Assembly: GCA_965247505.1 (NCBI GenBank) | Contig: OZ252020.1 | Coordinates: 2,539,719 to 2,603,718, forward strand | Direction of reading: 5' to 3' | Source of the DNA: Micropepsaceae bacterium | GTDB lineage: Bacteria; Pseudomonadota; Alphaproteobacteria; Micropepsales; Micropepsaceae | Length of the DNA stretch: 64,000 nt | The notes under the pieces: model-generated | What the model saw: the letters and a program-made list of their open reading frames with translations, nothing else | What the model was told of the DNA's origin: nothing | Databases searched by the model: none | Translations under genes and position numbers: made by a program | In this document: positions 6,560 to 29,044 of the stretch, in pieces | Numbering within the stretch: the first letter of the stretch is position 1 | How the letters are laid out: every line of letters starts with the position of its first letter

Positions 6560-6911
6560 AATATGCATGGTGTTTTATCTGGGTTTAAGACCGCCAGCTA
6601 CCGCCCGCACTGTACCGAACTCGGATTTCTTAGCTCAGGCGCAAGCTGTGCGCTTGGCGCCGAAGCGGACATGGCGCTTCGCTCTGCAGAAATGGATTGC
6701 TCATCAGGAATACCGTCTCAGGCAGTCGACACAATTTTTAGAAGGGCGAGGAAAAGAGTAGTGCGTCGTAAGCCATACCGAGACAGACATAGCCCGCAAT
6801 CAACGCTATCGCGAAGACGAGTCGCGCAAGTGACCCTTTAGTGCCGTTTAATTGCATCGCTAAATACTCCTTGGCGTCGCGAGCCTCAGCTCACAATCAA
6901 ACGCGTCTCGT

Positions 6912-8962: not shown

Positions 8963-9386
8963 GAAGCCCCCGAGCCCGATTGACGCCGGACCGTCTTATT
9001 GAAGTGCGCAGTGTAGAATATCGGGTCGATATTGGTGCCCGGTCAACGGAATTATTGTCTCGGAGCTGGGAATGTGGGCTTGCGGGAGACAATTGAGCGC
9101 CCGGCGTAATAGGTCATGGATGCTTCCTGCCATATGCAGGCATTGCCCTGGTGAGTTGTGGCGACCGCAAAGTACCGCGGTCTCAGTATAATGGTGGCGG
9201 GAGAAATCAGCGCGGCTTCAGCGCGTTGGGGAAGACGGAATTGTCGGTTCGTGGATCGCGAGCATCCAGCCTCTTGCGATCTTGCTGTTGGCCGGGGCGA
9301 CAAACGCTCAAAGCGGCGTAGAGATGCCCCAGCCCTTCTGCTAGGATAAAGGCGCCCAAGAATTAGTCGGTTAGCGGGGGAACGCT

Positions 9387-9860
9387 ATGGCAATTGATCT
9401 CAACGTGAATGGGGTTCAGCATTCAGTCGATGTAGCGCCGTATACGCCGCTGCTCTGGGTGATCCGGGATCACTTTAAGCTGAAAGGGACCAAATTCAGC
9501 TGCGGCATCGCCCAATGCGGCGCCTGCACGCTGCATATCGATGGTCAACCAGCGCGCTCCTGCAGCGTTCCGGTCTCGGCCGCGGCAGGCAAGGCCGTGA
9601 CCACGATCGAAGGCGTATCAGCCGATGGTTTGAATGCCGTGCAAGAGGCATGGGTCGAGCTCGACGTCCCGCAATGTGGCTACTGCCAATCGGGTCAAAT
9701 CATGAGCGCGGTCGCATTGCTTCGCAGACACCCAAATCCGAGTGATGCGGATATCGACGCCGGGATGACCAATGCATGCCGCTGCGCAACCTATTACCGC
9801 ATCCGCCAGGCAATCCATTTGGCTGCCTCAAAGATTTCCGCGGAAGGGGGGACGCTGTGA
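9387..9860 (+). CDS. (2Fe-2S)-binding small subunit of a molybdenum hydroxylase (IorA / aldehyde oxidoreductase small-subunit type)
   Basis: Two [2Fe-2S] cysteine clusters, [12 protein letters not shown] and the [11 protein letters not shown] motif. 157 aa. Confidence 0.85.
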
Positions 9861-12220
9861 TGAACAAGGATGCTCTCCCAAGCTCTGATCTTTCGGGCTC
9901 CGATCTTTCCCGGCGCGATATGCTTTCCGCGGCAGCGGCCGGCGCGCTCGTTATCGGTTTCCGGGTCCCGCGCGCGAAGGCGCAAATCATAGATCCGGAA
10001 GGCGCCGCATGGGCCAATGAGCCCGAATTCGACGAAGTGAATGCCTGGGTGGTCGTCGCGCCCGACAATAGCGTGACCATCCGTATCGCGCAGACCGAGA
10101 TCGGCCAGGGCGTATGGACCTCCAATGCCATGATGGTGGCCGAAGAGCTGCAATGCGACTGGAGCAAGGTCAGGCCCGAATATGCCTCCATCAATCGAGA
10201 CGCGCGCGAAATGGCGCCGGAATGGACGCTCAACGTGATGGGCGATGGCGCGCAAGACCCTAATGGCGGCGGCGAACCAGAGTTCCGCGACCGCAACCCG
10301 ACCGGCACAAATGGAATCCCGGACAGCCTTTATCGGCGCATGCGGACAAACGCCGCCGCATCCGTGCGCGATGGCCGTTACTATCTTCAACTGGCCGGCG
10401 CCGAAGCGCGCGAGCGACTATTATTAGCCGCCGCCAGGGTCTGGCGCGTTCCCGTCGAAGAGGTGAGTTCGGCCAACAGCCTGATCAGCCATGGGCCCAC
10501 TGGGCGCAGCATTACCTATGGACAGGTTGCATCGATTGCCGCGCAAATACCCCATCCGAATCCCGAAGGCATCCGCATCAAGCCGCCTTCGGGATGGACA
10601 TTGATGGGGACCGAGCGGAAAAACCTCGATGTTCCGTTCAAAATCTCCGGCAAGACCGTTTACGGCATCGATGTTGACCTGCCGGGCATGAAATGGGCGG
10701 CAGTGCGGTCCTGCCCGGTCTATGGCGGCACCGTGCGCAGTTATGATTTCGAGCAGATTCGAAACGAGCCGGGAATCATCTCGGCGACCGATTTCCCGAT
10801 CCCCGATCCGTCATTGATCCGCGGCCGCTTGTTTAGCGGGGGCGTCGCCGTTATCGCCGATAGCTGGTACCAGGCCAACACGGCGATCGATAAAATGCCG
10901 ATCGAGTGGGATATCCCGCCGGAAAACGCCGCATGGAATACCGCCAATATGCGCGCGGCGCTGATGGAATCATTGGACGAACCCGGCACTGTTCAAGCCA
11001 ACACCGGCGACTTCGATAGCGCCTTTGCGGGCGGTGCGAAAATAGTCGAAGCAGTTTACACAACGCCCTATCTCCCGCGCGCCCGGATGGAGCCCGGCAA
11101 CGCGACCGTGCTTGTCACCGACGACAGGGTCGATATCTGGGTCGGCGATCAGAGCCCGCAGGAGACGCGCCATTCGGCATCCCGTATTACAGGCATCCCG
11201 GAAGAGAACGTCCATCTTCATTTGTGCCATCTTGGCGGCGGCTATGGCCGCAATGGCAACGGCCCACAAGCCGAACAGACGATTCTTTTGGCCAACCAAA
11301 ACCGCGGCACGCCGATCCATATGCTTTGGACCCGCGAGGAAGACTTCGTCAGCACCACTTATCGTTCCATGGGCGTCGCGCGGCTGCGCGCGGCTCTCGA
11401 TGACGATGGCTGGCCGATCGCTTGGGAAGTCAAAACAGCCATGGACGAAAAGGCGCCCGGCTCCACCGCGGGCTTCGACATCGCCCCGCGCTACTTTGTG
11501 CCCAATTACCGTTTCTCGACCCACTCTGTGGCGTTCCACATTCCCGTAGGCACGCGGCGCGGCGTCGGCGCCCCTGCCATGAATTTTTATCGCGAGAGCT
11601 TCATAAACGAACTGGCCCACGCTGCCGGGATGGACCCGTATCAGTACCGCCGCGAGCTGATTTCGCGCGGCGACCTCCCCTACAAGGCCGACATGATCAA
11701 AGCGCTGGACATGGCAGCCGAAATGTCGGGCTGGGGCACGCCTCTGCCTGAAGGTACCGCGCGCGCCATCGCCTTCGAAGAACGCGGGGCCGAGGCCGAC
11801 GGCCATGCAACGTTCAGCGCCCAAGTCCATACCGTCTCGCTCAGTCGCGAGGGCGAAGTAAGCCTTGTTTGCGTCGATATCGCGCATGACGAAGGCTTCG
11901 GTCTGGTCAACCCGCTCAGCGTGAGAAAACAAATCGAAGGCCAGATTCCGTGGTTCTACAACGACGTGATGTATCAAGAATGTAACGTTAGCGAGGGCCG
12001 CATCGTCGAAAACAATTTCGATAGATTTCCCTTGGGCCGTATCGGCGACAATCCGCCCGAGATCAACATTTCCTTTTTCAAGTCGGAGCATTGGCTCGAC
12101 GGCATGGGGCATGATCGCGGCGTCTCGCTTCAATCCACTATTGCTGACGCCATCTTTCAGATCACCGGAAGGCGTTACCGCGACCTGCCCTTCCGCCATC
12201 ACGATTTGAGTTGGGGGTGA
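9860..12220 (+). CDS. Molybdopterin-binding large subunit of the molybdenum hydroxylase (IorB-like), with a Tat signal peptide
   Basis: The ATG at 9860 overlaps the stop of the upstream gene (ATGA). The N-terminus contains RRDMLSAAAAGALVIGF, a twin-arginine signal. The roughly 786 aa show similarity to the aldehyde oxidase/xanthine dehydrogenase Mo-binding domain. Confidence 0.85.
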   Translation: MNKDALPSSDLSGSDLSRRDMLSAAAAGALVIGFRVPRAKAQIIDPEGAAWANEPEFDEVNAWVVVAPDNSVTIRIAQTEIGQGVWTSNAMMVAEELQCDWSKVRPEYASINRDAREMAPEWTLNVMGDGAQDPNGGGEPEFRDRNPTGTNGIPDSLYRRMRTNAAASVRDGRYYLQLAGAEARERLLLAAARVWRVPVEEVSSANSLISHGPTGRSITYGQVASIAAQIPHPNPEGIRIKPPSGWTLMGTERKNLDVPFKISGKTVYGIDVDLPGMKWAAVRSCPVYGGTVRSYDFEQIRNEPGIISATDFPIPDPSLIRGRLFSGGVAVIADSWYQANTAIDKMPIEWDIPPENAAWNTANMRAALMESLDEPGTVQANTGDFDSAFAGGAKIVEAVYTTPYLPRARMEPGNATVLVTDDRVDIWVGDQSPQETRHSASRITGIPEENVHLHLCHLGGGYGRNGNGPQAEQTILLANQNRGTPIHMLWTREEDFVSTTYRSMGVARLRAALDDDGWPIAWEVKTAMDEKAPGSTAGFDIAPRYFVPNYRFSTHSVAFHIPVGTRRGVGAPAMNFYRESFINELAHAAGMDPYQYRRELISRGDLPYKADMIKALDMAAEMSGWGTPLPEGTARAIAFEERGAEADGHATFSAQVHTVSLSREGEVSLVCVDIAHDEGFGLVNPLSVRKQIEGQIPWFYNDVMYQECNVSEGRIVENNFDRFPLGRIGDNPPEINISFFKSEHWLDGMGHDRGVSLQSTIADAIFQITGRRYRDLPFRHHDLSWG

Positions 12221-12261
12221 AGCTGCTTTCAGGCAAACGCGATTTTCACGGAGGCTCTACG

Positions 12262-13152
12262 ATGCGCAGACGCTCGATTGCGGCTCTCATGGTTGGAATC
12301 TGTGTATGCACACTCGCCTGGCCGGTTCACGCCCAGGAGCGCGCGCTCCTCGGCGACGCTGCGCTACCCGATTTTTCCGGCCTGTGGGGACATACGCTCC
12401 TTGAAGTCGAACCGCCCTTTTCGGGCGCCGGGCCGGTGACAAATTCGAGCCAGATCCCGGGTCTTAACGCTGGGGATCACACCAATCCGATCCTCAGGCC
12501 CTGGGCGGCGGAGATCGTCAAGCGCAATGCCGAACTCGCGCTGAGCGGCCTGCCCCGTCCAACGCTGCACAATATGTGCGATCTGGAAGGCGTGCCCCTA
12601 ATTGTCACCGTAAAGGAAGTAAAGTTCCTGCAGACTCCCGGGCAAGTCACGATGCTCTATTATTCAAATCACCAAGTGCGTTTCGTCGCCATGAATGTTG
12701 CGCACACAGTGAATCCTGAGCCCACATGGTTCGGAGAGTCCGTCGGCCATTACGAAGGCAATGACACGCTGGTGATCGACACGATCGGCATAAAGAGGAC
12801 AGACGATACCGAGGTCGATTGGTTCGGCACGCCCCACACGGACGCCCTGCATGTCGTCGAGCGCTATCGCTTGGTCGACAGCGAGGAAGTGGTCAGAGCG
12901 CCGGAACCAGACCGGCGGCGCGAAGGCAGGGTCGGCACCTATTACCGCCCGCTACCCGGAGGCAAGACGCTGGGAGTGCAATACAATGTGGAGGACCAGG
13001 GCGCTTTCACGAAGCCGTGGGGGGCAGTCGTGCACAATGAAATAACGCCGGACAGAGACAACTCGCTGGAGCATGTCTGCGCCGAGAATAATCGCTTCTT
13101 CTTCCGCGAGGAATTGTTCCCGATGACGAGTGCCGGCGATCCGGACTTCTGA
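12262..13152 (+). CDS. Secreted protein, member of the WYGESxGHYEGD paralog family. It sits directly downstream of the Mo-oxidoreductase genes.
   Basis: Signal peptide MRRRSIAALMVGICVCTLAWPVHAQ. The family motifs WFGESVGHYEGNDTLVIDTIG and FGTPHTDALHVVERY are present. The gap to the upstream gene is only 42 bp. Confidence 0.6.
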   Translation: MRRRSIAALMVGICVCTLAWPVHAQERALLGDAALPDFSGLWGHTLLEVEPPFSGAGPVTNSSQIPGLNAGDHTNPILRPWAAEIVKRNAELALSGLPRPTLHNMCDLEGVPLIVTVKEVKFLQTPGQVTMLYYSNHQVRFVAMNVAHTVNPEPTWFGESVGHYEGNDTLVIDTIGIKRTDDTEVDWFGTPHTDALHVVERYRLVDSEEVVRAPEPDRRREGRVGTYYRPLPGGKTLGVQYNVEDQGAFTKPWGAVVHNEITPDRDNSLEHVCAENNRFFFREELFPMTSAGDPDF

Positions 13153-14049: not shown

Positions 14050-14104
14050 GCCGGTTGCGAGATTCATAAGCAGCTTATTGTCATAGCCAACGCCCGCTTT
14101 GGGT

Positions 14105-15769
14105 CCAGGCTGTGTGAAAACGCGTTGGCTGGTATGATTCTTCTGTGATTTGGTGGAGGGGTCGATGAAGCGCTTTGTAGTTGGCGATGATCGCAGTTAA
14201 AGCACTCTTTTTCCTGAGCGGCTGGATGAGTATTTGGGCGATGACAACCCGGTTCGGGCGATTGATGTCTTGGTTGATGAGCTTGATCTGGGGGAATTGG
14301 GCTTTAGCGGGGTTGAGCCGGAGGCGACGGGAAGGCCTGCCTACCATCCGGCGACGCTGCTGAAGATCTACGTCTATGGATACCTCAATCGGGTCCAATC
14401 GAGCCGTCGCCTAGAGCGGGAGTGCCAGCGCAATCTCGAGCTCCTATGGCTGACCGGCCGCCTGATGCCGGATTTCAAAACTATCGCCGATTTCCGCAAG
14501 GACAACGGCGGGGCCATCCGCAAGGTCTGCCGTGCGTTCGTAGTGTTGTGCCGTCGCCTTGAGCTGTTCAGTGAGGCGAGCGTTGCGATCGATGGCAGCA
14601 AGTTCAAAGCGGTCAATGCGTGGGATCGGAACTTCACGCAGGCCAAGATGCAGCGGCGGTTGAAGCAGATCGACGAGAGCATTGCGCGCTACCTCTCGCA
14701 GCTTGATAGCGCCGATCGCCAGGGCGAAGCGGTGCCGGAGGCCAAGATCACGCGGCTCAACGAGAAGATTGCGATGCTGCGCCAAGAGATACAGCGCCTG
14801 AATGCACTGAACGTTCAGATGATGCAGAGCGAGGACAAGCAGATCTCCCTGACAGATCCCGATGCGCGCTCGATGGCCACGAGCGGCCGGGGCAGCGGGA
14901 TGGTCGGTTATAATGTGCAAAATTCCGTGGACACGACGCATCATCTGATCGTTTCCCATGAGGTGACCAACAAAGGCTCTGATCGGGGTCAGTTGTCGGG
15001 CGCTGCCGCGCAGGCGCGCACGGCCATTGGTTCTGAAACCATCGAGGCTGTTGCCGATCGCGGCTATTACGCCGGCGAAGAGATCCTGGCCTGCGAGGAG
15101 GCCGGCATAACGGTCTATCTCCCGAAGCCCCTGACCTCAGGGGCCAAAGCCGCAGGGCGTTTCGGCAAGCAGGACTTCGTCTATGTCGCCGAAGACGATG
15201 TCTATCTTTGTCCCAACGGTGAGCAGCTCACCTATCGCTATACCAACGAAGAGGCCGGTAAGATGCTGCGCCGCTATTGGACGGCTGCCTGTCAGGCGTG
15301 TGCGCTGAAAAGCAAGTGCACGACGGCTCGGGAGCGCCGGATCTCACGTTGGGAACACGAAGCCGTCCTTGAGAGAGTTCAGGCGCGGCTCGATCGAAAT
15401 CCGGACAAGATGCGCGTGCGCCGCCAGACCGTGGAGCATCCCTTCGGTACGATAAAGTCGTGGATGGGAGCGACGCACTTCCAGATGAAAACGCTCGAGC
15501 ACGTCGGCACCGAAATGGCGCTGCACGTTCTGGCCTACAACATGAAACGCGTGATGAAGATTCTTGGCGTTGGCGGATTGATAGAGGCGATCCACGCATG
15601 AGACGGGCTCAGGGGGCCCCATAACCCAGCATTCTTCGCATCAAGGAGCCGTTAGGCATCTCCGCGGACCGATTTTACTGAATTGGACGCGTCGGGTCGC
15701 ATAATCCCGCCCCGACCTCCGCTTACGCTACCAACCACCAGACCCGACCACCTTTTCACACAGCCTGGG
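14105..15769 (+). mobile_element. IS1182-family insertion sequence
   Basis: Terminal inverted repeats CCAGGCTGTGTGAAAA (14105-14120) and TTTTCACACAGCCTGG (15754-15769) flank a single transposase gene. The N-terminal signature MKRFVVGDDR.STLFPERLDEYLGDDNPVRAIDVLVDELDL and the C-terminal HPFGTIK motif are those of the IS1182 family. Confidence 0.7.
14165..15601 (+). pseudogene. IS1182-family transposase interrupted by an in-frame TAA at codon 12 (14198-14200)
   Basis: The ATG at 14165 reads MKRFVVGDDRS-TAA-STLFPERLDEYLGDDNPVRAID. The stop replaces the conserved Gln (CAA) of the family N-terminus. The remaining 467 codons are intact (the track ORF restarts at TTG 14234). Confidence 0.65.
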
Positions 15770-15775
15770 TCAGGA

Positions 15776-15838
15776 GCGGACATCCATGTTGCAGTGCAAT
15801 AAGTCTGCTAAGTGCCACAAGCGGACATTGGTGTGAGC
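15776..15838. repeat. 60-bp imperfect inverted repeat, left copy. Its partner is at 17787-17845.
   Basis: The reverse complement of 15776-15838 matches 17787-17845 (ATGTCCGCTT.TGGCACT.AGCAGAC.TATTGCACTGCAACATGGATGTCCGCTC) with about 3 mismatches in 58 bp. It contains the palindrome TTGCACTGCAA and two GGATGTCCGC direct repeats. Confidence 0.7.
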
Positions 15839-15920: not shown

Positions 15921-16718
15921 CTAAAAATCATGCGCCGAGGCTGTAGGAATATCGAATACTCCGCCTGAAGGGTCCTTGTTGTTCTCTGCACACGCAGACT
16001 CGTGAAATGGCGCCGCGGGCCAATAGGTCGCGCGCGCTGACCAGGGTGTGGTGAACAGTTCAGGGTCTTCAATAGTGAGTTCTATTGCAATCGCGCTGCG
16101 GTCGGGCGCAATCGTATATCGTTCGACAATGTGCAAATTCTCGCTTCGTGGCGTGCCAAAGCGGTCTACGAGTGCGACGTCATTCTGGCCGATCGTATCG
16201 ATAACCAAACTATCAGAGCCTTCGTAATGGCCGGTAGAATGGCCGTACCATGTCCGGGGAGAATTATTGGCATGCCCTTCGTTGAGATAGACATGCCGCA
16301 CTTGATTGTCGCGCTCGTAAATGATCGTCACCTTGTCGGGCGACTGAAGAAATTGCAGTGGATCGTTCATGTTGACCACTAACGGCACGCCGGGCGGCCA
16401 GCACAAGACCCAAGCGGGCTGACTAATGTTTCCCGAACGGCCGATTGCCGCATGCGCCGTAACTGCCGCCAGGGCCTCTGGTCCAAGTATGCGGTTGTCC
16501 AAATCCGCGATCCAGAAGGGGCCCGAATCCGCCGCGCGCATCATCGGCCCCGGCCCGCTTTCGGGAGCTTGGAACGATCGCCCTTCGGCGCTATCTGAAC
16601 GCGTCCAATAGCCGGTGAAATTCGGGATTTCAGTTTCTTGTGCGGCGATACTCGCCGGAGAAATCAAGACGAACAGTCCGGACAGTATTAGGAGATGGCG
16701 GCAAATCGATCTGCGCAT
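15921..16718 (-). CDS. Secreted protein, member of the WYGESxGHYEGD paralog family
   Basis: Signal peptide MRRSICRHLLILSGLFVLISPASIAAQ. Family motifs WYGHSTGHYEGSDSLVIDTIG and FGTPRSENLHIVERY are present. Confidence 0.6.
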   Translation of the reverse strand: MRRSICRHLLILSGLFVLISPASIAAQETEIPNFTGYWTRSDSAEGRSFQAPESGPGPMMRAADSGPFWIADLDNRILGPEALAAVTAHAAIGRSGNISQPAWVLCWPPGVPLVVNMNDPLQFLQSPDKVTIIYERDNQVRHVYLNEGHANNSPRTWYGHSTGHYEGSDSLVIDTIGQNDVALVDRFGTPRSENLHIVERYTIAPDRSAIAIELTIEDPELFTTPWSARATYWPAAPFHESACAENNKDPSGGVFDIPTASAHDF

Positions 16719-16846
16719 TGCGATGCCCTCGGAGCCGCCCAGTTAAGCAAAACCATATTATCGCGGCTCAGCGTAGCGCAGTTTGGCCTGACGGCTCCTT
16801 TAGTACCAGCGGTTTAGGGTGCGACATGTCCGCTTTACCTTTGCGG
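16671..16846. repeat. 176-bp direct repeat, copy 1. Copy 2 is at 17575-17750 and is nearly identical.
   Basis: Two mismatches over 176 bp. Copy 1 covers the start codon, the signal-peptide-coding 5' end and the upstream region of the family gene 15921-16718. Confidence 0.85.
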
Positions 16847-17160
16847 TCTCAATGGATCAACGCAACACTAGCGGCAGGCCTCTCTGCCGGGGGTTAGAAC
16901 CTCAAAGTCTTTCAGGACCGTTCTTGAGCCGTCCGGCCACTTTTCTCGGATGCGAGAGCGAATAGACCGAAAACACAGCACTCTTCAGAAAGCGTTATCA
17001 GAGCAGGCGTTTGACGTTCCCATTGGAGCTGGGCTGGCAGTGATTCCACGGCCCAGGCTTCTCGTGCAAGGTGAACCACGGACTATGCCTTTGGCTCGTA
17101 AGCACAAACTCAGACTCCTCCGTTTGCGCCAAGGTGTTGCGTCGACCGGTTGAGGCGGCA
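16842..17160. repeat. Roughly 320-bp inverted repeat, copy A. Copy B is at 22579-22888 in reverse complement.
   Basis: Identical 67-aa and 63-aa spurious ORFs appear in both copies (16950-17153 + equals 22576-22779 -). Nucleotide identity is near 100 percent across the core. The two copies flank a 5.4-kb gene block. Confidence 0.85.
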
Positions 17161-17221
17161 CTTTGAGAGCGGACATCGGTGCTGCACCAATTAGGACACT
17201 TAGCTAGAGAAATTAGGACGC

Positions 17222-17536
17222 TCACTCAAGATTCCGCTGGCCTTTTCGCAGGCCACAATTGAAACATTGTTTGTTGAAAGCGGTAACCCCTCCTAGGAAC
17301 CCCCATTTAAAAGAAAAGGGTTCGCCACATTTGGGGCATAGGAATGCAGAGTGCCACAGGAAGGGAACAAAAAGTGCGACAACGTCCCATGGAGCGAAAT
17401 AGGCCCAATCAATATTTTGAAAAAAGAATGGGCCAGCGAACCACGTGGTCACAAAAGAGACGAAAGTGCCCAACAGGAGGGCGCGCCTAAAATCTAGGTC
17501 GCGCCACGCTCGCTGGTATAGGACTTCTTTCGTCAA
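17222..17536 (-). CDS. Small membrane protein with a C-terminal zinc-ribbon (CPKCG...CFNCG)
   Basis: 104 aa with two hydrophobic helices followed by two CxxC pairs. The segment is AT-rich. Confidence 0.4.
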   Translation of the reverse strand: MTKEVLYQRAWRDLDFRRALLLGTFVSFVTTWFAGPFFFQNIDWAYFAPWDVVALFVPFLWHSAFLCPKCGEPFSFKWGFLGGVTAFNKQCFNCGLRKGQRNLE

Positions 17537-17574
17537 AACTGCCCGCCCTCAATTACCCTGAACCGAACAGTCCG

Positions 17575-17750
17575 GACAGTATTAGGAGATGGCGGCAAAT
17601 CGATCTGCGCATTGCGATACCCTCGGAGCCGCCCAGTTAAGCAAAACCATATTATCGCGGCTCAGCGTAGCGCAGTTTGGCCTGACGGCTCCTTTAGTAC
17701 CAGCGGTCTAGGGTGCGACATGTCCGCTTTACCTTTGCGACCTCAGGTGA
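17575..17750. repeat. 176-bp direct repeat, copy 2, carrying a truncated remnant of the family gene 5' end
   Basis: On the minus strand it encodes MRRSICRHLLILSGLFGSG-stop, i.e. only the signal peptide of the 15921-16718 paralog. Confidence 0.8.
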
Positions 17751-17786
17751 TCGATGCACCGCAGCATGGATGTCCGCTTATGGCAC

Positions 17787-17845
17787 TAAGCAGACATATT
17801 GCACTGCAACATGGATGTCTGCTCTCGGGGGCAAAGTGGACATTC
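17787..17845. repeat. 60-bp imperfect inverted repeat, right copy. Its partner is at 15776-15838.
   Basis: See the left copy. Together they bracket the 15839-17786 segment. Confidence 0.7.
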
Positions 17846-17981
17846 GGCTCGGTCCTAGAAAAGAGGCCGGTAAAGCGTTTTCGGCATGAGGCGATGTTCA
17901 TCGACTCTGGGGCGTGATGAATTAGCAGTGAATTCGCAATGACACTCGGCGGTTCTGGCGCCTGATGGAGCCAGGTGCGAT

Positions 17982-18911
17982 TTACGGGACTGCACCCGTG
18001 AGCTCTTGATAAATCCTGCGCACCATGACTTCCCTTTGCGGGAGGGTGCCGCCTCCAAACAAATCATATCCAGTCATGCCTTCATATTGTTGAAGGAGAA
18101 TACGAGCCGCGACTTCGTCTTCTGTCGCTCCTTGCGCAATCTCTCTCTCAACGGCATCGCGCGCTTCGACCATAATTTGGCGGGATCGAACCAGCGCCTG
18201 CCGGGTTACTTCAGGCTCGTTCACCGTCCATGCTCCGTTTCCGGGAACGATAATGTCGGCCTCGAGGTTCAAGATGAAATCGATCGCGTTTATCCAGTTG
18301 AGAGTTCCTGAGTCCATGAACGGAAACCGCTCGTAGAAAAACACCTCACTCGTATAGACGATCCGGTCTTGAGGAACGAAAACGATGCTGTCGCCCCGCG
18401 TGTGCGCGGGGCCAACATGGATAATCTGAATTTCCTTGTCACCGACGTGAAGCGTCATGCGCTCAGCGTAGGTCAGATCGGGAAGTATGGCCTCTTGTTG
18501 CGGTGTCGGAACATCATTGCCTCCTAGCAGATCGGCCTTGTAGTCCTCCTGGCCAATATTAATGGCATCTTGATAGGCGACGTTACCGCGCGAATAATTG
18601 CCGTGGTTTGATGAGGAAATCAGATAGCGAACAGGCTGCCCAATAATATCGGATATCAGTTGCCGTTCATGCATCGCCATGGCTTCGTTGCTTAAAGCAT
18701 CAACCACCACGACTCCTTCGTTTGTGACAATTACGCCGCTGATACGGGGATCGGAAAGATACGCATAGTGACCGGGGATAATCTGTTCGAGGGTTCCGGA
18801 TTGTGCGTCGTTGGAGGCTTGCGCGAGTGCGCGATTGAGCTGCGCATCCGTTACGAAGATGCCGAGGCTCAAGGGGAGTAAAAAAACGAGAAACATCATC
18901 GATTTGGGCAC
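17982..18911 (-). CDS. Secreted MBL-fold metallo-hydrolase (metallo-beta-lactamase superfamily)
   Basis: Signal peptide MPKSMMFLVFLLPLSLGIFVTDAQ. The motifs HVGPAHTRGD and SSNHGNY (His/Asp metal ligands) are present. 309 aa. Confidence 0.7.
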   Translation of the reverse strand: MPKSMMFLVFLLPLSLGIFVTDAQLNRALAQASNDAQSGTLEQIIPGHYAYLSDPRISGVIVTNEGVVVVDALSNEAMAMHERQLISDIIGQPVRYLISSSNHGNYSRGNVAYQDAINIGQEDYKADLLGGNDVPTPQQEAILPDLTYAERMTLHVGDKEIQIIHVGPAHTRGDSIVFVPQDRIVYTSEVFFYERFPFMDSGTLNWINAIDFILNLEADIIVPGNGAWTVNEPEVTRQALVRSRQIMVEARDAVEREIAQGATEDEVAARILLQQYEGMTGYDLFGGGTLPQREVMVRRIYQELTGAVP

Positions 18912-19052
18912 GACTATGTCCTCCTGTCGAAAAACGCACTAGCCAAACAAGATCGCATTTCCAGGAAAGTCGGTCTATCCGACCTTCCCACTGCTTAGCC
19001 GCTCTAGCTAGTGAGATCGATCTCGCGAATGGTCTTGTCCGCACGCAGAACA

Positions 19053-20153
19053 TTATTCCCAGTGCGGTGTTCCACCCGCCTCGAGATAATCTTGGAACCG
19101 CCTGTCGCTCTCGTCGTAAAACGTGCCCCAGGGGCGCGGATCAGTGGCGTCCCAGTCGAGCTGCTCGCCCGGAACGCGATGGTTGAGAAAACCGTTCTCG
19201 TCCAAATAGACTGTTGGTGACGGGCCGTTGGTGTCGGTGCACGTCACATAGAGCGGCCGAAATTCGGGACGCGTCTCCGTCTCGAGCCTGAAATTGTGCT
19301 TGGCGTGGTAGGGACGCACAAAGACCTCCGGGTCGTAGAGCGTGACTTCGCCCTCGATAATATCGCCCACGCGCCGGTAGCGCTCCACCGTCTCCAGATT
19401 GTCGGTGTGTTCCGAGGGCCCACCGAACCATCCTTTCACCTGATTGGTGTGAATGATGAGGGCATCGCCGTCCCAGAAGCCTACCGATTCGCCGTGCCAT
19501 TTGGGATATTGCAACTCCTGCGAACTGTGTCCACTGCCGTCGGTGTATATCCAGCGGATGTAGTTCACGCCGACGCTTGAGGCCAAGGTCCAAACCTTTT
19601 CCGGCGTTACGATGAATTCATCGACATTCGTTAGCGCAGACATGAACCCGCCGGGCAGGCAAAAGGCGCCCGCCCACCAGGGACGCGCTTGGGCTTCGGC
19701 CCGCACGTCCTGAATGAAATATTCCTGATGTTGCGGCGTCAGTAATGCGACGGTCGAACTTACGGGGTTCTGTCCGCCACCGAACGCGCCCCGCTCGTGC
19801 GCCCAAACGCCGCTCCAATCTGGGATCGTATCCTTGGTATGTTGTGTGCCGCCGTCTGCCTCCTCGCGCCAAGCCTGGTAGTGCTCCCAGGCCGTGGCAA
19901 AAGAATAGGGGCTCGTATGTTCGCGCGAGCCAGGCACGCCCGTGCCCGTCGTGCCGTAGGATGCGGGATCTTCGCCCATCCCACGCATCTCGCTGTTGGT
20001 ATTGTGCCGATAATAGGCCGGATCGGTCCAGTGTTCGCGGTCTGCACGAAAATCCTCGGTCGTGAAGATGTCTTGCGCGGTTGCGCTATAGGCAAAACCC
20101 GCGAACAGCGTAACCAGCGAAACCGTCGCCGACAGAGAAGCCCGCATGATCAT
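19053..20153 (-). CDS. Secreted protein, long (about 370 aa) subtype of the paralog family
   Basis: The start at MIMRASLSATVSLVTLFAGFAYSATAQ (ATG 20153) follows a GGAGG RBS. The motifs KWHGESVGFWDGDALIIHTNQ and EHTDNLETVERYRRV are present. It is paralogous to 57341-58501 (EEHYNAWLEAADGGTEH versus WEHYQAWREEADGGTQH). Confidence 0.6.
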   Translation of the reverse strand: MIMRASLSATVSLVTLFAGFAYSATAQDIFTTEDFRADREHWTDPAYYRHNTNSEMRGMGEDPASYGTTGTGVPGSREHTSPYSFATAWEHYQAWREEADGGTQHTKDTIPDWSGVWAHERGAFGGGQNPVSSTVALLTPQHQEYFIQDVRAEAQARPWWAGAFCLPGGFMSALTNVDEFIVTPEKVWTLASSVGVNYIRWIYTDGSGHSSQELQYPKWHGESVGFWDGDALIIHTNQVKGWFGGPSEHTDNLETVERYRRVGDIIEGEVTLYDPEVFVRPYHAKHNFRLETETRPEFRPLYVTCTDTNGPSPTVYLDENGFLNHRVPGEQLDWDATDPRPWGTFYDESDRRFQDYLEAGGTPHWE

Positions 20154-20219
20154 TCCTCCTGTCTGAATCCGGACATATGGCTTTTGCCCCGGAGGGCACC
20201 TGTTATTCGTAGATGCCAA

Positions 20220-20588
20220 TTATTCGTGGATGTAAGTATTCCCATCGGCGCTGGTGATCGTCGTGAAGCTTCCGCCCGGGCGGCCGTCTCTTAAGGGGTG
20301 CATGTTCACACTAACTGCGTCACCATCCGCGAATGTGTTTAAGTTCATTCCCCCGCGGAGCATGGTCGGAATGTTCACCATCTCGATCCAATATTGCACG
20401 GTCTCGCCGTTTTCCTCTTCGACATCGACATAGAGGAAGGCGTGCGGATTGCTGAACACATATCCGGACACGGTCCCGTTGATGGTCACATCACTAGTGT
20501 TGTCGAACATCGCGTGGCTGTGGTGCGCTAATGCTGCCGGCGCGACCAGCAAAGGCCAGGTGAGTATTACGAAATAGATGCCTCTCAT
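20220..20588 (-). CDS. Small secreted protein whose predicted mature N-terminus is HHSHAMFD (unknown family). It lies immediately upstream of a paralog-family gene.
   Basis: Signal peptide MRGIYFVILTWPLLVAPAALA, then HHSHAMFDNTSDVTINGTVSGYVFSNPHAFLYVDV... Total length is 122 aa. It is paralogous to 25838-26219. Confidence 0.55.
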   Translation of the reverse strand: MRGIYFVILTWPLLVAPAALAHHSHAMFDNTSDVTINGTVSGYVFSNPHAFLYVDVEEENGETVQYWIEMVNIPTMLRGGMNLNTFADGDAVSVNMHPLRDGRPGGSFTTITSADGNTYIHE

Positions 20589-20712
20589 AGCTCGGTCCTC
20601 TGGGTGCTAATGCGATCTTTGGCGGTGGGGAGCAAGACTACTGCACTATGGGCACCTCATCCAGGGATTTTAGATGTCCGGGAACCGGAAACGGAGATCC
20701 TCAGAGCGATAT

Positions 20713-22437
20713 CTATCGCACTTGCACTTTCACGATTTGCGAGGGCGGACGATAGGAGGGGATCCAAAGCGTCGGCCGTTCGGTGCCGGGCTCCACCGTT
20801 AAATCGCGCATCACATAGGGGCGCGGCATAAAATATTCGACCGACTCGCCGGTTTCCATATCGATGCGGAAGAGGCGATTGGCGTTGAAGTCCGTCGTCC
20901 AAACCCATCCGTTTTCATCATCCACCGAAAGCGTATAGGGCGCGGCATAGGGCGGGTCATAGGCCTCGGTTCCGGGAAACATAGGATATTCTTTCATCTC
21001 ACCGTTGTCGGGATTGAAGCGCATAATCCGTCCCGCATAAAAAAGCGGCGTCCAGAAATTTCCCTCGGCGTCCATCTCGCCACGCCGCGGTCCCGATTCC
21101 GGCGTTGAAATTTCATAGAGTTTGTATTCGTCGTTCGTGGGATCGAAGACGCCGATTTGGCCGCCCCGCCATATATTGATGATGGTTCGGGCTTTCGAAT
21201 CCGTCTCCATGTCATAGACGCCGTCATTATAGGGGATGGGGTGTGTGATCACCTCGCCATTGTTCAGATTGAGCTCGAAGAGCGGGCCGCCTTCATTGGT
21301 GTGCCAAACATGATCATTGGAATCGAGCCCGAACATGCTGGCGCCCGACGGCCATTCGTCGAATATTTCGGTAACGGGATTGTAGCGCACCGTTGCCATG
21401 TCCATACCGATAATGAGATTGCCTTGGCTGTCGGCCAATAGATCGTGGGACCCGCCACCGGGATTGCCGGCGCGAATTTCACCCGGCGCCGCGTCCGTCA
21501 CCCGACCGCCGCCCGGCGGAATGGCATAGGCAAGTTCGACCACCTCGCCGGTGTTCTTGTCCAACCGTCCCAAAGCATTGGAAAAATGATCCGTGTACCA
21601 AGCATATTGCTCGTCGATGACAACATCATGCGGCCAAACATGGCGTGCGTCGCCGCGCAGCATGAAAAGCTCGCGCTCGCCGCCACGCGGCAGATCATAT
21701 TCGGTCAGGACAAGGCGCGTGGCCTCCTCGGAGGTCGGGCGCGGGCGCAATTCAAAGGGGATGACATCGGACGATCCCGGCCCGCGAATAGAGGTGATGT
21801 ATTCCGCGAGCGGCTCGATGAAGCGCATCTGGCTAAAATTCAAGGATTTAGGGAAGTTCTGTGACGTTCTTGCCCGCCCGCCCATGAGGTGAATAATTTC
21901 TGTCCAGCCCGCCTGATCATATTCGAAGCGCAATGCGCGCTGAATCGAGTGGCAGGTGCTGTATTGCGAAAACAACACTTTCTCACGGTCCGTCCCGGGA
22001 AGCGCCGCCACAATCTCCGATGCGGTCGCGTCTTCGATCGAGGGCTCGCGCGCGATCAGCGCGAAATCCGCATGCGCGGAAGACCCCTCGCTCAGCGCGA
22101 CGGCGTCTTGGTGAACATGCCCATAATCGGGAAGCTCTATGGAAAGCGTATGCGCGCCCGCGGACAAATCGGACCAAGCGGGGAAGGAATAGATTCCATC
22201 GCCATTGCTATAGACAACGACGCTGAAACTCTTGCCGTCTCCGCGAGCACGTATGGGAATGCCGGCGAGCGCGTTGCCGTCTTGCGATGTAATGCGGCCA
22301 TAAAGAAGCGCGTCTTGTTCGACGCCTGCGAATTCGTCACTCGGCGAGCAATTCGAAACAATTGCGAGAAGTGCAAAAGCAGCTATAGCCCGCAAGGCAC
22401 CGCGGCTCCTAAATATCGACAATGGCATGATTTCCAT
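20713..22437 (-). CDS. Secreted protein with an N-terminal carboxypeptidase-regulatory-like beta-sandwich and a C-terminal beta-propeller (Vgb-lyase/NHL-like)
   Basis: 574 aa with a signal peptide. The segment LYGRITSQDGNALAGIPIRARGDGKSFSVVVYSNGDGIYSF resembles the CarboxypepD_reg fold. The downstream repeated blades are Gly/Asp/Trp-rich. Confidence 0.5.
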   Translation of the reverse strand: MEIMPLSIFRSRGALRAIAAFALLAIVSNCSPSDEFAGVEQDALLYGRITSQDGNALAGIPIRARGDGKSFSVVVYSNGDGIYSFPAWSDLSAGAHTLSIELPDYGHVHQDAVALSEGSSAHADFALIAREPSIEDATASEIVAALPGTDREKVLFSQYSTCHSIQRALRFEYDQAGWTEIIHLMGGRARTSQNFPKSLNFSQMRFIEPLAEYITSIRGPGSSDVIPFELRPRPTSEEATRLVLTEYDLPRGGERELFMLRGDARHVWPHDVVIDEQYAWYTDHFSNALGRLDKNTGEVVELAYAIPPGGGRVTDAAPGEIRAGNPGGGSHDLLADSQGNLIIGMDMATVRYNPVTEIFDEWPSGASMFGLDSNDHVWHTNEGGPLFELNLNNGEVITHPIPYNDGVYDMETDSKARTIINIWRGGQIGVFDPTNDEYKLYEISTPESGPRRGEMDAEGNFWTPLFYAGRIMRFNPDNGEMKEYPMFPGTEAYDPPYAAPYTLSVDDENGWVWTTDFNANRLFRIDMETGESVEYFMPRPYVMRDLTVEPGTERPTLWIPSYRPPSQIVKVQVR

Positions 22438-22578
22438 AAAGCTAAACTTTCATGAGCGTTCCGGTACCGGGCCGTATTCTCGACATCCATAGTCCGAGCA
22501 CTGAATGCTACGCTTGGGGAGGGACCTGCTTCAAGCAGCGCTGCGGTGGCCCAATGTCCGCTCTTGGCTGCCGCCTCA

Positions 22579-22888
22579 ACCGGTCGACGCAACACCTTGG
22601 CGCAAACGGAGGAGTCTGAGTTTGTGCTTACGAGCCAAAGGCATAGTCCGTGGTTCACCTTGCACGAGAAGCCTGGGCCGTGGAATCACTGCCAGCCCAG
22701 CTCCAATGGGAACGTCAAACGCCTGCTCTGATAACGCTTTCTGAAGAGTGCTGTGTTTTCGATCTATTCGCTCTCGCATCCGAGAAAAGTGGCCGGACGG
22801 CTCAAGAACGGTCCTGAAAGACTTTGAGGTTCTAACCCCCGGCAGAGAGGCCTGCCGCTAGTGTTGCGTTGATGCATTGAGACCGCAG
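22579..22888. repeat. Roughly 320-bp inverted repeat, copy B (partner 16842-17160)
   Basis: Reverse-complement identity to copy A. Confidence 0.85.
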
Positions 22889-23056
22889 CACTCAGCGAAC
22901 ATCCCTAGTCATCTGGGTAACGTCTGCGTCCGGCAGGCAGTGCGGATATGGGGACTAAAATCCGGGGAATTTATTGGTTTTCGATGTGGGTTGCGCGCTC
23001 CGCCTATGCGCCCCTATAGCTCACTGTGTTACTGATAGGCTTAATTTGGAGCCGCC

Positions 23057-24154: not shown

Positions 24155-24208
24155 GCCTGCGTGCGCCAGGGTGAGCGAACATCTATAGATTTCGGAGTTT
24201 ACCGGGCC

Positions 24209-25060
24209 TCAGAAATCCAGCCTGGTTGCGGTCGGCATTGGATATTCGCCGCCCGTCAAGATATCGAGATTGCTCTCGGCACAATAAAATTCTTCGAACA
24301 TGGGCGCCCCCATTATCCGGTGCAGAATACGCGAGCCAGTCCAAACTTCCGTGAACGCCTCCGGATCGTCGACACTATATTGAACCTCAATTGTCTCACC
24401 ATCTTCTAGTAGAGCGTAGCGTTCGACGACATGCAGCTTTTCGCTGTGCGGCGTCTGAAAATCATCCACCACCGTTCTGTCGTTCATGCCGATGGTGTCC
24501 ACTACCAGTGTGTTGCCTTCGAAGTGACCGACCGATTCGCCGTACCAGCTGGGCGTAATGTTTTCGGAATGAGATACATCCAGATAGATGTATCGCATCT
24601 CCGGACCCTCCATATGATGGATTGTTACCTGGTTCTCTGTCTGCAGAAACTCGATGGGCTGACCGCCAAGCTCAACAATTGCGGGAACACCGTTGGGCCA
24701 GCAAAGTGATCGGGCCGGCAGAATGACTTCCCCCGCGATTCGTCTGTCGACTACGTCCTTCAATGCTTCCGCGGTCCTTGGCTGGAGAAGCGGATCCGTC
24801 ACATCCGCTATTGCCGGGACCGGCGCCTGCCGGACGCCGCCCACACCGCGGCTGCCCCTTTGCTCGTAATCCGGGTGCCGGCGAACACCAGACCGACCGG
24901 GAGGCTCGGCATCCTCGGCGCGCCAAATACCGGAGAAATCAGGGCCAAGAATCGTCGAAACATTGTTGGGTTGGGCTTGGGCCTCGGCGAAAACGACTGC
25001 GCCGATAGCGACGATAATCGCGGTACTTATTAGCGAGTAAAACCTTGTCACTTCCGGCAC
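24209..25060 (-). CDS. Secreted protein, member of the WYGESxGHYEGD paralog family
   Basis: Signal peptide, then LCWPNGVP, WYGESVGHFEGNTLVVDTIG and FQTPHSEKLHVVERY. Confidence 0.6.
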   Translation of the reverse strand: MPEVTRFYSLISTAIIVAIGAVVFAEAQAQPNNVSTILGPDFSGIWRAEDAEPPGRSGVRRHPDYEQRGSRGVGGVRQAPVPAIADVTDPLLQPRTAEALKDVVDRRIAGEVILPARSLCWPNGVPAIVELGGQPIEFLQTENQVTIHHMEGPEMRYIYLDVSHSENITPSWYGESVGHFEGNTLVVDTIGMNDRTVVDDFQTPHSEKLHVVERYALLEDGETIEVQYSVDDPEAFTEVWTGSRILHRIMGAPMFEEFYCAESNLDILTGGEYPMPTATRLDF

Positions 25061-25075: not shown

Positions 25076-25810
25076 TCAATTCGGCGCGTTCACGCCTGGA
25101 ATATGTGAAATATCACGATGTTCGTCTCCGCAAACATATTCCTGAAGACGAATATCGGGATGCAGATCGTAGACAAAACGTGCGCTCCAGGCCTCAGTAA
25201 AGACTATGGGATCGTCTACCGTCACCATTATTTCAAGGCTATCGCTGCCCAGCTTGCGGACACGTTCCACCGTGCGCATCTCGGCGCTATGCGGCACACC
25301 TGTCGCGTCAATGAATGTCTTATCCTTGTAGCCGGCGGTTTCGATCACAAGGGTATCGCCTTCCCACTGGCCAACGGAGTAACCCGAATAGAATGGAATA
25401 TTTTCGAGGAGTTCCTCCGACGGCATGGGAATGTCGAGCATCACGCGCCGCATCACTCGGTTAAGTTCATAGGCCATACTGACCTGTCCGGGGGTCTGAA
25501 TGATCTGGAACGGGTAGGGATTGCCCAAAATACGCGGCACGCCGTCGGGCAGACAGAGTCTGCGCGCCTCGTCGCTCAACGGGTCTTCCTGAAGGGCAGA
25601 CATATTGCTCTCATATTGCGCCCGTCCAATCTCGGTGAACGGAAGCGCATTCTCACCGACCAGACGGATCGCCGGGCTATAGCTCTGTGTCCACCACACG
25701 CCTGAAATGCTCTGTGCTTCAGCCGGCTCGGCGCTGTCGGCAGATCCGGTCAGCAAGGACACGACCATCATGGCTGACGCCAATGATATTGTGAGCGTTT
25801 TTTCGGTCAT
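25076..25810 (-). CDS. Secreted protein, member of the WYGESxGHYEGD paralog family (divergent copy)
   Basis: Signal peptide MTEKTLTISLASAMMVVSLLTGSADSA, then LCLPDGVP, YSGYSVGQWEGDTLVIETAG and GVPHSAEMRTVERV. Confidence 0.6.
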   Translation of the reverse strand: MTEKTLTISLASAMMVVSLLTGSADSAEPAEAQSISGVWWTQSYSPAIRLVGENALPFTEIGRAQYESNMSALQEDPLSDEARRLCLPDGVPRILGNPYPFQIIQTPGQVSMAYELNRVMRRVMLDIPMPSEELLENIPFYSGYSVGQWEGDTLVIETAGYKDKTFIDATGVPHSAEMRTVERVRKLGSDSLEIMVTVDDPIVFTEAWSARFVYDLHPDIRLQEYVCGDEHRDISHIPGVNAPN

Positions 25811-25837: not shown

Positions 25838-26219
25838 CTAATCGTACTCTTCCGCCAACGCTCTTCCGTCCGGAAGCGTAATCGAGTCAAGCGTCCCGGC
25901 ATAATCGCCATCATGCGTTGGAAAAATGGATACCGAAATCTCATCGCCTGCGACAACGGTATCGCTTCTCCAACCCCTGCGAAACAGGCGGGACGGATTA
26001 CTCATTTCGATCACATATTCAACCGACTCACCATTTTCATTGGCAGCCATTACGCGCAGCCAGCTATGGGGGTTAGTCCACTCGAAACTCGATACGGTGC
26101 CCTCTACCGCTACCGTCCTGGTGAAGTCAAACATCGCATGCGAATGATGTCCAAATGCGGGCACCGCCAAGAATACAAATCCTATGCTAGCTAGGCTTAA
26201 GGTCTTCGTGTTCATCATT
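25838..26219 (-). CDS. Small secreted protein whose predicted mature N-terminus is HHSHAMFD. It is paralogous to 20220-20588 and lies immediately upstream of two family genes.
   Basis: The ATGATG at 26214-26219 follows a GGGAGG RBS. The signal peptide MMNTKTLSLASIGFVFLAVPAFG is followed by HHSHAMFDFTRTVAVEGTVSSFEWTNPHSW... Confidence 0.55.
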
Positions 26220-26445
26220 ATCCTCCCGGCAGAGCTAATAAAAACCCCACAAATGGAACCAACCTGTCTCATAATATACGCAGATTAGGGGTTCCACAAT
26301 CGCGGCTTAACAAGTGTGATTCCAGCCGGCCTATTGTCGGGAAACAAGGCTTCGCCATTGGCGATTTTGGCCGCCGGATAGCTGCTCGGGAAAACAGCCG
26401 GTCCTGCTTACCTAAGGCTATCCATCCGATCTTACCGATGGGAAA

Positions 26446-27594: not shown

Positions 27595-29044
27595 AGGGGA
27601 TGTCCCGGTCGATGTTGAAAAGTTGAGGTAGGTGTCGCTCTCCTGGAGCCGTTAGGCTCCGGGTGCTGCAAACCCAAAAGGGAGAACGACACCATGGGAA
27701 ATAATATCCGTAGTTCCAGCCGCCCGAAAGCCCTTGCCCCCTCGATTCCTATGCCGCCGCTGGCGGACGCGATGGACGCAGTCCATCTCAGCGTGGATCG
27801 GTTTTGTCTTCTGGCCGGGGTCTAGGCCTTGGCCGAGATGATGGAGGAGGACGCCACGACCGTGTGCGGGGCCCGACATCGCCGCCATGGGGACCGTCGA
27901 GGTTATCGCTGGGGCAGGACACATAGCGAGATCGGCTACCACGGCGGCAAAGTGAAGGTGGCCCGGCCACGGGTTCGTGACCGGGCGGGCAAAGAGGTGA
28001 GCTTGGAGAGTTGGCAGGCGCTACGCGATGCCAACCTGCTACTCGAGTGGGCGCTCAACCTGATGGTGCTGAACGTGTCGATCCGCAAGTACCACCGCGC
28101 GGTCCGTCTGCCCGAGGGCGACCTGGCGAAAGCGCGTGGCGACGGCACCTCGAAGTCGGCCGTTTCCCGGCGCTTTGTGGCGCTGTCACGCAAGAAGATG
28201 AAGGCCTGGCTCGCCTCGGATCTCTCGGAACTCGACCTGCTAGTCATCCAGATCGACGGTCTGCATGTCGGCGACCATGTCCTGATGGCGGCGATCGGCG
28301 TCGATGGCAACGGCGACAAGCATGTCCTGGCCGTGGTCGAGGGGGCGACGGAGAACACGGTCGTCGTCCAGGCCTTGATCGACAATCTCCTCGCCAGGGG
28401 GCTCGATCCGACACTGCCGCGGCTGTTCATCGTCGATGGCGCGAAGGCACTCAGCAAAGCGATCCGAAACACCTTCGGTGTGGCCGCCGCCATCCAGCGC
28501 TGCCAGGTCCACAAGGGCCGTAACATCATCGGGCGCCTGCCCCAACATTTGCACGCGAGCGTCAAGAAGGCGCTCCGTCAGGCCTGGGACCAGGACGACG
28601 CAAACAAGGCCGAGCGGCTCTTGCGCAACCTGGTCCGGCGTCTGGAGCATGAGGAACCGGGCGTCTCGGGCAGCATCCTGGAGGGGCTGGAGGAGATCCT
28701 CACCGTCATCCGCCTCGGCCTACCGCACGAACTCCGGCGCTCGCTCGCCTGCACTAACATCGTCGAGAACGCGCTCGGCACGGTGCGCCAGGTCACCCGC
28801 AACGTCAAACGCTGGAGACACGCCGAGATGGCGCTCAGATGGACCGCCGCCGGCCTGCTGGAGGCCCAGAAAACCTTCCGTCGCCTCAAGGCCTATCGCC
28901 AGCTGCCCATCCTCCGAAATGCTCTCCAGGAACACTTGAGAAAGGCTCAGGCCGACAGTGCCATTGAAACCATCATGAAGGCAGCATAGCATCATCAACC
29001 AGCGACGCCTGCCCCACGAATTTCAACAGAGATAGGGACATCGC
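27595..29044 (+). mobile_element. IS256-family insertion sequence with an 8-bp target site duplication CCTATTCG
   Basis: Direct repeats CCTATTCG at 27587-27594 and 29045-29052. The imperfect terminal IRs are TGTCCCGGTCGATGTTGAAAAG... and ...CTTTCAACAGAGATAGGGACA. The transposase is of the mutator/IS256 type (GYRWGRTHSEIGYHGGKVKVARPRVRD). Confidence 0.7.
27694..28989 (+). pseudogene. IS256-family transposase with an in-frame TAG at 27823-27825
   Basis: The ATG at 27694 reads MGNNIRSS...LSVDRFCLLAGV-TAG-ALAEMMEEDATTVCGAR. The stop falls within the conserved N-terminal region of the family, and the downstream 386 codons are intact. Confidence 0.6.

Follow-up and report, generated by a model that had tools for sequence, protein, structure and literature searches.

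Gene content and repeat structure of the region

The genome of a Micropepsaceae bacterium (assembly GCA_965247505.1, contig OZ252020.1) was analysed over 64,000 nucleotides, positions 2,539,719 to 2,603,718 of the forward strand (hereafter the window), in which two inverted arms bracket a 5.4-kb block of genes. A repeat search of the window placed the arms at 16842-17160 (copy A) and 22569-22887 (copy B), each 319 nt long and 99% complementary to the other, with 5408 nt between them, and pairwise alignment of the two copies gave 2 mismatches over 319 nt. Each arm is very probably a complete, non-autonomous element of the IS30 family of insertion sequences (IS), that is, a miniature inverted-repeat transposable element (MITE) of 319 bp, and the two arms are accordingly read as independent insertions. 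The original prediction had described near-identical inverted repeats of about 310 to 320 bp, which is correct; its coordinates were exact for copy A, and the inner end of copy B (given as 22579-22888) was misplaced by about 10 nt. A gapped blastn match is longer (16842-17179 against 22551-22887, 338 nt, 97.6%) because the same AGCGGACAT half-palindrome follows both copies beyond the ends of the arms. No other long inverted repeat is present in the window, and this one is far beyond chance.

All of the genes that had been listed as bracketed by the repeats lie between the arms: an open reading frame (ORF) of 104 aa with no match in Pfam or NCBIfam, an MBL-fold protein (PF00753), a 388-aa family protein, a DUF6152 protein with the sequence AHHSHAMF, and a 574-aa CarboxypepD_reg/Vgb_lyase-like protein. 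Copies A and B themselves are non-coding and lie in intergenic or promoter-proximal positions. The mirrored ORFs of 63-67 aa within the arms match no protein family of Pfam or NCBIfam, in agreement with the earlier judgement that the repeat has no convincing coding capacity, and should not be annotated as genes.

A non-coding unit that is conserved between two copies and placed between genes or near promoters might be a structured RNA gene or a regulatory element. The Rfam search that had been proposed for the repeat unit returned nothing on the arms at the gathering threshold when the whole window was searched, and nothing relevant at E<=10 over the repeat region, where the sole permissive match was to an unrelated long non-coding RNA model at chance level (15.8 bits, E = 1). 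Scans for promoters and terminators over both copies and their flanks found no such sites. The content of the unit is explained by the ends of IS30 elements, as set out below, and copy B is dispensable, there being strains that lack it; a function in RNA or regulation is therefore considered extremely improbable.

Anatomy of the 319-bp element

Copy A (16842..17160) is an internally deleted IS30-family element that carries the 3' remnant of a transposase gene on the minus strand, and copy B (22569..22887) is the same element in the opposite orientation, on the plus strand. The terminal inverted repeats of each arm are 27 bp long and imperfect (TGCGGTCTCAATGGATCAACGCAACAC … GTGTTGCGTCGACCGGTTGAGGCGGCA). 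In copy A, as read on the plus strand, a degenerate end pattern identified the right-type inverted repeat (IRR), TGCGGTCTCAATGGATCAACGCAACAC, at 16842..16868, which is the end with the transposase 3' remnant, and the reverse complement of the pattern identified the left-type repeat (IRL), GTGTTGCGTCGACCGGTTGAGGCGGCA, at 17134..17160. In copy B, sequence and alignment place the IRL-type repeat at 22569..22595 and the IRR-type repeat at 22861..22887, also on the plus strand.

Immediately outside the element, the flanks read CTT|…|CTT for copy A and GC|…|GC for copy B. The CTT at 16839..16841 is repeated at 17161..17163, and the GC at 22567..22568 is repeated at 22888..22889; the empty site of a related strain (L065, below) has a single GC, and the blast segments there overlap by 2 bp. 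At 4-5 nt beyond these target-site duplications, ATGTCCGCT is found on one side of each copy and AGCGGACAT on the other. Copy A splits a palindrome with its left arm ATGTCCGCT at 16826..16834 and its right arm AGCGGACAT at 17168..17176. Copy B splits another, with ATGTCCGCT at 22554..22562 and AGCGAACAT (1 mismatch) at 22894..22902, both of which are evident from the sequence and from the empty site. The spacers between the 9-mers and the element differ between copies A and B, and therefore the 9-mers belong to the target and not to the element. Except for these generic palindrome arms, the identity of the sequences flanking the two copies ends where the element ends.

The alternative that ATGTCCGCT...AGCGGACAT are the outermost terminal repeats of the element itself was considered and rejected: the 6-7 nt that separate the 9-mers from the core are not the same in the two copies, both 9-mers are retained at the empty site, unoccupied units are common, and IS30 of Escherichia coli ends at the position equivalent to TGCGG. 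Derivation of the element from the neighbouring IS1182-family element was rejected along with it.

The original prediction had also raised a recent duplicative rearrangement or a gene fragment duplicated by assembly error. Near-identical copies would be expected of a segmental duplication or an assembler mis-join, and a 195-nt direct repeat nearby demonstrates that local duplication does occur. Against this, homology breaks off precisely at terminal repeats of the transposon type that are flanked by target duplications, the duplication (2-3 bp) and the split palindrome are separate for each copy, and four assemblies have an empty site in place of copy B. Both copies, in the same arrangement, recur in independent long-read assemblies from different samples, and the element is found at other loci as well. 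A copied fragment or an artefact of assembly is hardly credible as the origin of the arms.

Relationship to the IS30 family

A degenerate pattern covering both ends of the MITE was scanned against one genome per species and matched 64 loci. These belong to Alphaproteobacteria, Gammaproteobacteria and Acidobacteriota, and many lie at the end of a contig. In 15 of the 64 loci the opposite end is 1226-1228 bp away, and these longer elements possess an ORF of 386-391 aa that contains the motifs DRAVPGHWEGDL and NENTNGLLRQYFPKG and has its stop codon inside the terminal repeat (…ACVAS(T/I)G*). The transposase of a full-length copy in related strains (IS30b) scores 290 bits against the NCBIfam model for IS30 family transposases (NF033563, cutoff 80 bits) and is 46% identical to the transposase of E. 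coli IS30. In a plasmid record of E. coli IS30, the IRL is TGTAGATTCAATTGGTCAACGCAACAG, which the MITE end matches at 20 of 27 positions; the duplication there is 2 bp, and the transposase stop codon likewise falls inside the right repeat.

The interior of the MITE can be divided between the two ends of the full-length elements. Nucleotides 1 to ~200 correspond to the 3' ends of the 1227-bp elements at about 65% identity, and nucleotides ~190-313 correspond to their 5' ends at about 64-67%; across many full-length elements, the matches extend over nt 1-198/210 (3' ends) and nt 187/192-313 (5' ends) at 60-71% identity. With tblastn, a decayed remnant of transposase residues 328-370, interrupted by in-frame stops, was located at 17051-16914 on the minus strand of copy A. 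An ORF at 16950-17153 (...GVASTG*) was examined as a possible transposase C-terminus and rejected: its ending is a run into the IRL-type repeat, and the true transposase remnant lies on the minus strand toward the opposite end. Other taxa, including Dyella solisilvae and several metagenome-assembled genomes, also have short elements (204-320 bp) with these ends.

In common with the IS30 family (E. coli IS30, Neisseria IS1655 and relatives), the MITE has homologous terminal repeats of ~20-30 bp, target-site duplications of 2-3 bp (CTT for A and GC for B), insertion at the centre of a palindrome, and an interior homologous to both ends of full-length members. The family preference for nearly palindromic hot spots is matched by the flanks of 29 elements, which form a palindrome. 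The DDE transposase with an N-terminal helix-turn-helix and an rve core (NF033563) is not encoded by the MITE, which has only the stop-ridden C-terminal remnant; it is therefore a derivative and not an autonomous member. In full-length relatives the transposase stop lies within the right-hand repeat. The MITE has lost ~900 bp and retains a 3' remnant with stops, and its hot spot is not a sporadic site but an abundant host repeat resembling repetitive extragenic palindromic (REP) sequences.

The 319-bp unit is a MITE by its size (under ~600 bp), its ends, its target duplications, its lack of coding sequence, and its insertion polymorphism at several unrelated sites. Other bacterial MITEs derived from insertion sequences (Correia elements, RUP, and the Tn3-derived TIMEs) are alike in small size, terminal repeats, duplications and lack of coding capacity, and also in occupying several sites per genome with presence/absence polymorphism among close strains. 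Unlike them, the present element has an IS30 parent and a low known copy number, with at least three copies (at sites A, C and D) in a genome of 4.4 Mb. Literature searches found no paper on IS30-derived MITEs.

Several observations weigh against assigning the arms to two IS30-family insertions. The search for full-length elements found no close relative of the MITE; the resident IS30b has ~65% identity to it in the parts common to both, and the terminal repeats of the two agree at 21 of 27 positions. No IS30 transposase was detected by tblastn within the window. Seven of the 29 complete elements lack a clean duplication of 2-4 bp, and transposition of the MITE is deduced from its presence and absence among strains.

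Occupied and empty sites in related strains

Related strains were sampled as long-read metagenome assemblies retrieved by exact-protein look-ups, which are 99.3-99.8% identical to the window at the nucleotide level. The 574-aa protein has no exact database record, and the 99%-identical P0001 from a homology search was used instead. The lineage was found only in ENA, NCBI and Logan assemblies; JGI metagenomes, scanned for a 30-mer of the MITE core, returned 0 matches.

Two haplotypes were distinguished. Haplotype 1 comprises ERZ21829562 (L065/68/75), ERZ28669063 (L071/78), ERZ28763718 (L076) and the Logan assembly ERR14231557 (L081). In these four assemblies, alignment to the window extends over 17770-22568 and is taken up again at 22888, the two segments overlapping by 2 bp; copy B is thus absent, and all four have the empty palindrome intact. 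In L065 the empty site is ATGTCCGCTCTTG-GC-ACTTAGCGGACAT, with a single GC and a perfect 9-N10-9 palindrome. Haplotype 2 comprises ERZ26694896 (L069), ERZ25071132 (L070/77), ERZ25069191 (L072/79), ERZ25068966 (L073/80) and, in part, ERZ25068833 (L074). Four of these assemblies have both copies in the order and orientation of the window, and L074 covers the A side only. Haplotype 2 differs from the window by an IS3 element inside the IS1182-family element at about 14670, and by a full-length IS30b between 17758 and 17770.

Copy A is present at its site in 10 assemblies, the window included, and is presumably ancestral to all sampled strains. Copy B appears to be confined to the haplotype in which a large rearrangement set the copy-A locus beside the block. 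Four sites (A, B, C and D) in the strains sampled are occupied by the identical element of 319 bp, with the duplications CTT, GC, GC and CCT respectively, and split palindrome arms are found at all four.

The inverted placement of the two copies around genes recalls classic composite transposons, in which the MITEs would be the ends of a 6-kb unit carrying the secreted-protein genes. The outer flanks, CTT and GC, share no duplication, however, and each copy has its own; four assemblies without copy B have the block in the same context, beside a DUF2272 gene; and in the strains that lack copy B, copy A is ~536 kb away. Mobilization of the block as a composite unit is thus thought to have almost no likelihood.

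The original prediction held that the block may exist in two orientations in a population through RecA-mediated inversion. The arms are formally a substrate for homologous recombination, for which it is established that 319 bp at 99% identity is ample. The transposase of IS30 can also join the inverted repeats of distant copies and yield inversions (PMC9333248), which counts in favour of an invertible segment maintained as a standing polymorphism by RecA or IS30 transposase, as does the proneness of the region to rearrangement among strains. The recombinant junction of an inverted block would consist of the left flank of copy A, the MITE and GCCAAGAGCGG..., reading …CCGCTTTACCTT through the MITE to GCCAAGAGCGGACATTGGG. 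In comparison with the related strains, which had been recommended, no inverted block was present in any related assembly: the four assemblies with both copies, and the fifth that covers the A side, all have the orientation of the window. The CTT/CTT and GC/GC pairs, which one inversion between the two MITEs would have broken up, are intact, and this argues that any inversions since insertion were even in number. The hallmarks of a Hin-, Gin- or Fim-type switch or of a shufflon are lacking, since no recombinase is encoded by the ORFs within or beside the block and the related assemblies have one orientation only. Inversion of the block by RecA or by a transposase is possible in principle and unsupported by these comparisons, and an invertible segment is rated very unlikely. 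The 5.4-kb block is neither a unit nor a composite transposon, nor a segment demonstrated to invert.

A second IS30 element and a large rearrangement

What does vary among strains is the arrangement of the chromosome on another scale, by a route that does not involve the 319-bp repeats; the predicted variation in orientation is borne out to this extent only. Haplotype 1 is exemplified by a 4.4-Mb contig (ERZ28763718:ctg125566) from a strain 99.2-99.7% identical to the window. This contig has the segment 15772-17767 together with IS30b at about 3.864 Mb (L066), and the block 17770-22568 at about 3.323-3.328 Mb (L076); the two lie 536 kb apart, and their relative orientation is reversed. A large inversion or translocation, of which one of the two junctions was seen, thus distinguishes haplotype 1 from haplotype 2; the breakpoint is the left edge of the block (~17768), and IS30b is located there.

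IS30b is about 1225 bp long in related strains and encodes a transposase of 391 aa. It is whole at this point in L069 (reverse complement, 8525-9757), L070, L072-74 and L066 (reverse complement, about 11816-13069). The window retains only a 23-nt stump of IS30b (17736..17758, plus strand), the rest of the element having been deleted, and joins TGCGACCTCAGGTGATCGATGCA straight to CCGCAGCATGG at a TGCA microhomology. This loss looks like excision by illegitimate recombination that also took half a palindromic unit. Full-length IS30 elements are multi-copy in the related genomes: five variants of the 391-aa transposase cluster are assigned to the 4.4-Mb contig, and two members of the cluster are assigned to a 4.7-Mb contig that is also listed for proteins identical to the MBL-fold and 265-aa proteins of the window.

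The two units of the 195-nt direct repeat (16670-16864 and 17564-17758, 95% identity) each contain the start of the gene at 15921-16718 (49 nt) and the sequence upstream of it, in which the left half of a palindromic target is included. One unit borders on MITE A and the other on the IS30b stump, both at precisely the same point (after ...ACCTT), and a truncated N-terminus of 19 aa is all that the second unit encodes.

The target palindrome

The target unit can be written as ATGTCCGCT-N10/11-AGCGGACAT, and copies A and B are each inserted at the centre of one such unit. Duplications and flanks were surveyed in 29 complete elements, namely 27 from the end-pattern scan and the two copies in the window. 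A duplication of 2-4 bp is present in 22 of the 29 (2 or 3 bp in 21 elements and 4 bp in one), and the flanks form a palindrome, approximately ATGTCCGCTnTTGG-N-CCAAnAGCGGACAT.

Unoccupied units were identified by scanning the window at 6646-6672, at 15801-15828, and as a pair separated by a 17-nt spacer at 17770-17797 and 17815-17843; collinearity with the other haplotype begins exactly at 17770. These four units compare with about 0.2 expected by chance. In the other, unrelated loci that were scanned, 34 units were counted over 472 kb, or about one in every 14 kb. They are often paired with a conserved 17-nt spacer, CCATGTTGCAGTGCAAT, and are found in Alphaproteobacteria and Gammaproteobacteria and on one Bradyrhizobium plasmid; a looser variant of the palindrome flanks elements in Acidobacteriota. 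The palindromic units behave like a REP-type repeat family.

Insertion sequences that target REP sequences include IS1397 and ISKpn1 (IS3 family), IS621 and ISPpu9 (IS110 family), and members of the IS4, IS256 and IS5 families (Tobes & Pareja 2006, PMC1525189). Like the MITE, they insert at the centre of extragenic palindromic units. IS30 and IS1182 are not among the five families of that survey, and literature searches found no paper on REP-targeting by IS30.

An IS1182-family element (NF033551) is present at 14106-15767. It is 1662 bp long, encodes a transposase at 14234-15601 on the plus strand, and has perfect terminal repeats of 15 bp (CAGGCTGTGTGAAAA). It has a GGTC duplication (14102-14105 and 15768-15771) and is inserted at the centre of a palindromic unit of the same kind, which is unoccupied in L066.

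It is tentatively proposed that an IS30 clade and its MITE derivatives are specialised for the centre of ATGTCCGCT-N10/11-AGCGGACAT, and that the unrelated IS1182-family element uses the same units; this is rated as somewhat less likely than not.

Proposed mechanism of insertion

IS30 transposes by a copy-out-paste-in pathway with a 2-bp staggered attack on nearly palindromic hot spots, and copies without a transposase can be complemented in trans (PMC9333248). By analogy with the family, a full-length IS30-family transposase acting in trans presumably moved the MITE by the same pathway. A circle of the element with abutted ends would form, and the transposase would then attack a nearly palindromic hot spot with a stagger of 2-3 bp. 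The MITE itself lacks ~900 bp of transposase gene and retains two terminal repeats of ~27 bp, with ~200 bp of decayed 3' end joined to ~125 bp of 5' end. Two separate insertions, 5.4 kb apart and by chance in opposite orientation, very probably account for the inverted repeat, each at the centre of a REP-like ATGTCCGCT-N10/11-AGCGGACAT unit and each with its own duplication (CTT and GC). The near-identity of the arms reflects recent transposition from a common source rather than duplication of the locus, and the enclosed genes are bystanders.

Other features of the window

Proteins with signal peptides but no Pfam match, paralogous to one another and 244-388 aa long, are encoded at 12211-13152, 15921-16718, 19053-20219, 24209-25060 and 25076-25810. 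They have motifs such as ...VxERY... and ...TxPW..., and their genes are interleaved with those of DUF6152 (HHSH) proteins at 20220-20588 and 25838-26272. This looks like an expanded family of secreted-protein genes.

Farther along, 27595-29044 is occupied by an element of the IS256 family (Transposase_mut), about 1.45 kb long and flanked by the 8-bp duplication CCTATTCG. Neither L065 nor L071/78 has it at this site, and in L076 it is displaced by 833 bp further along; it is thus a further insertion that varies among strains. L065 has instead an IS3-family insertion at about position 24204 of the window. A tandem array with a period of 12 nt (36820-36948, TAACCGTGGCTTCAATCGCGG-like, at least seven registers) is located inside a coding region and probably encodes a tetrapeptide repeat of the type N-R-G-F/Y.

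Implications

The appropriate annotation of the repeat is two insertions of an IS30-family MITE, and not an invertible cassette or a duplication. It is an ordinary footprint of mobile elements and leaves the current understanding of such elements unchanged. Strains that are ~99.5% identical differ by insertions of the MITE and of IS3, IS30, IS256 and IS1182 elements, and by a rearrangement of about half a megabase, which indicates fast remodelling of these genomes by insertion sequences. The natural occurrence of both empty and filled sites provides a clean example of palindrome-centred target choice by IS30-family elements. Palindrome-specific targeting common to an IS30 clade and an IS1182 element, if it holds, is a mildly new thread.

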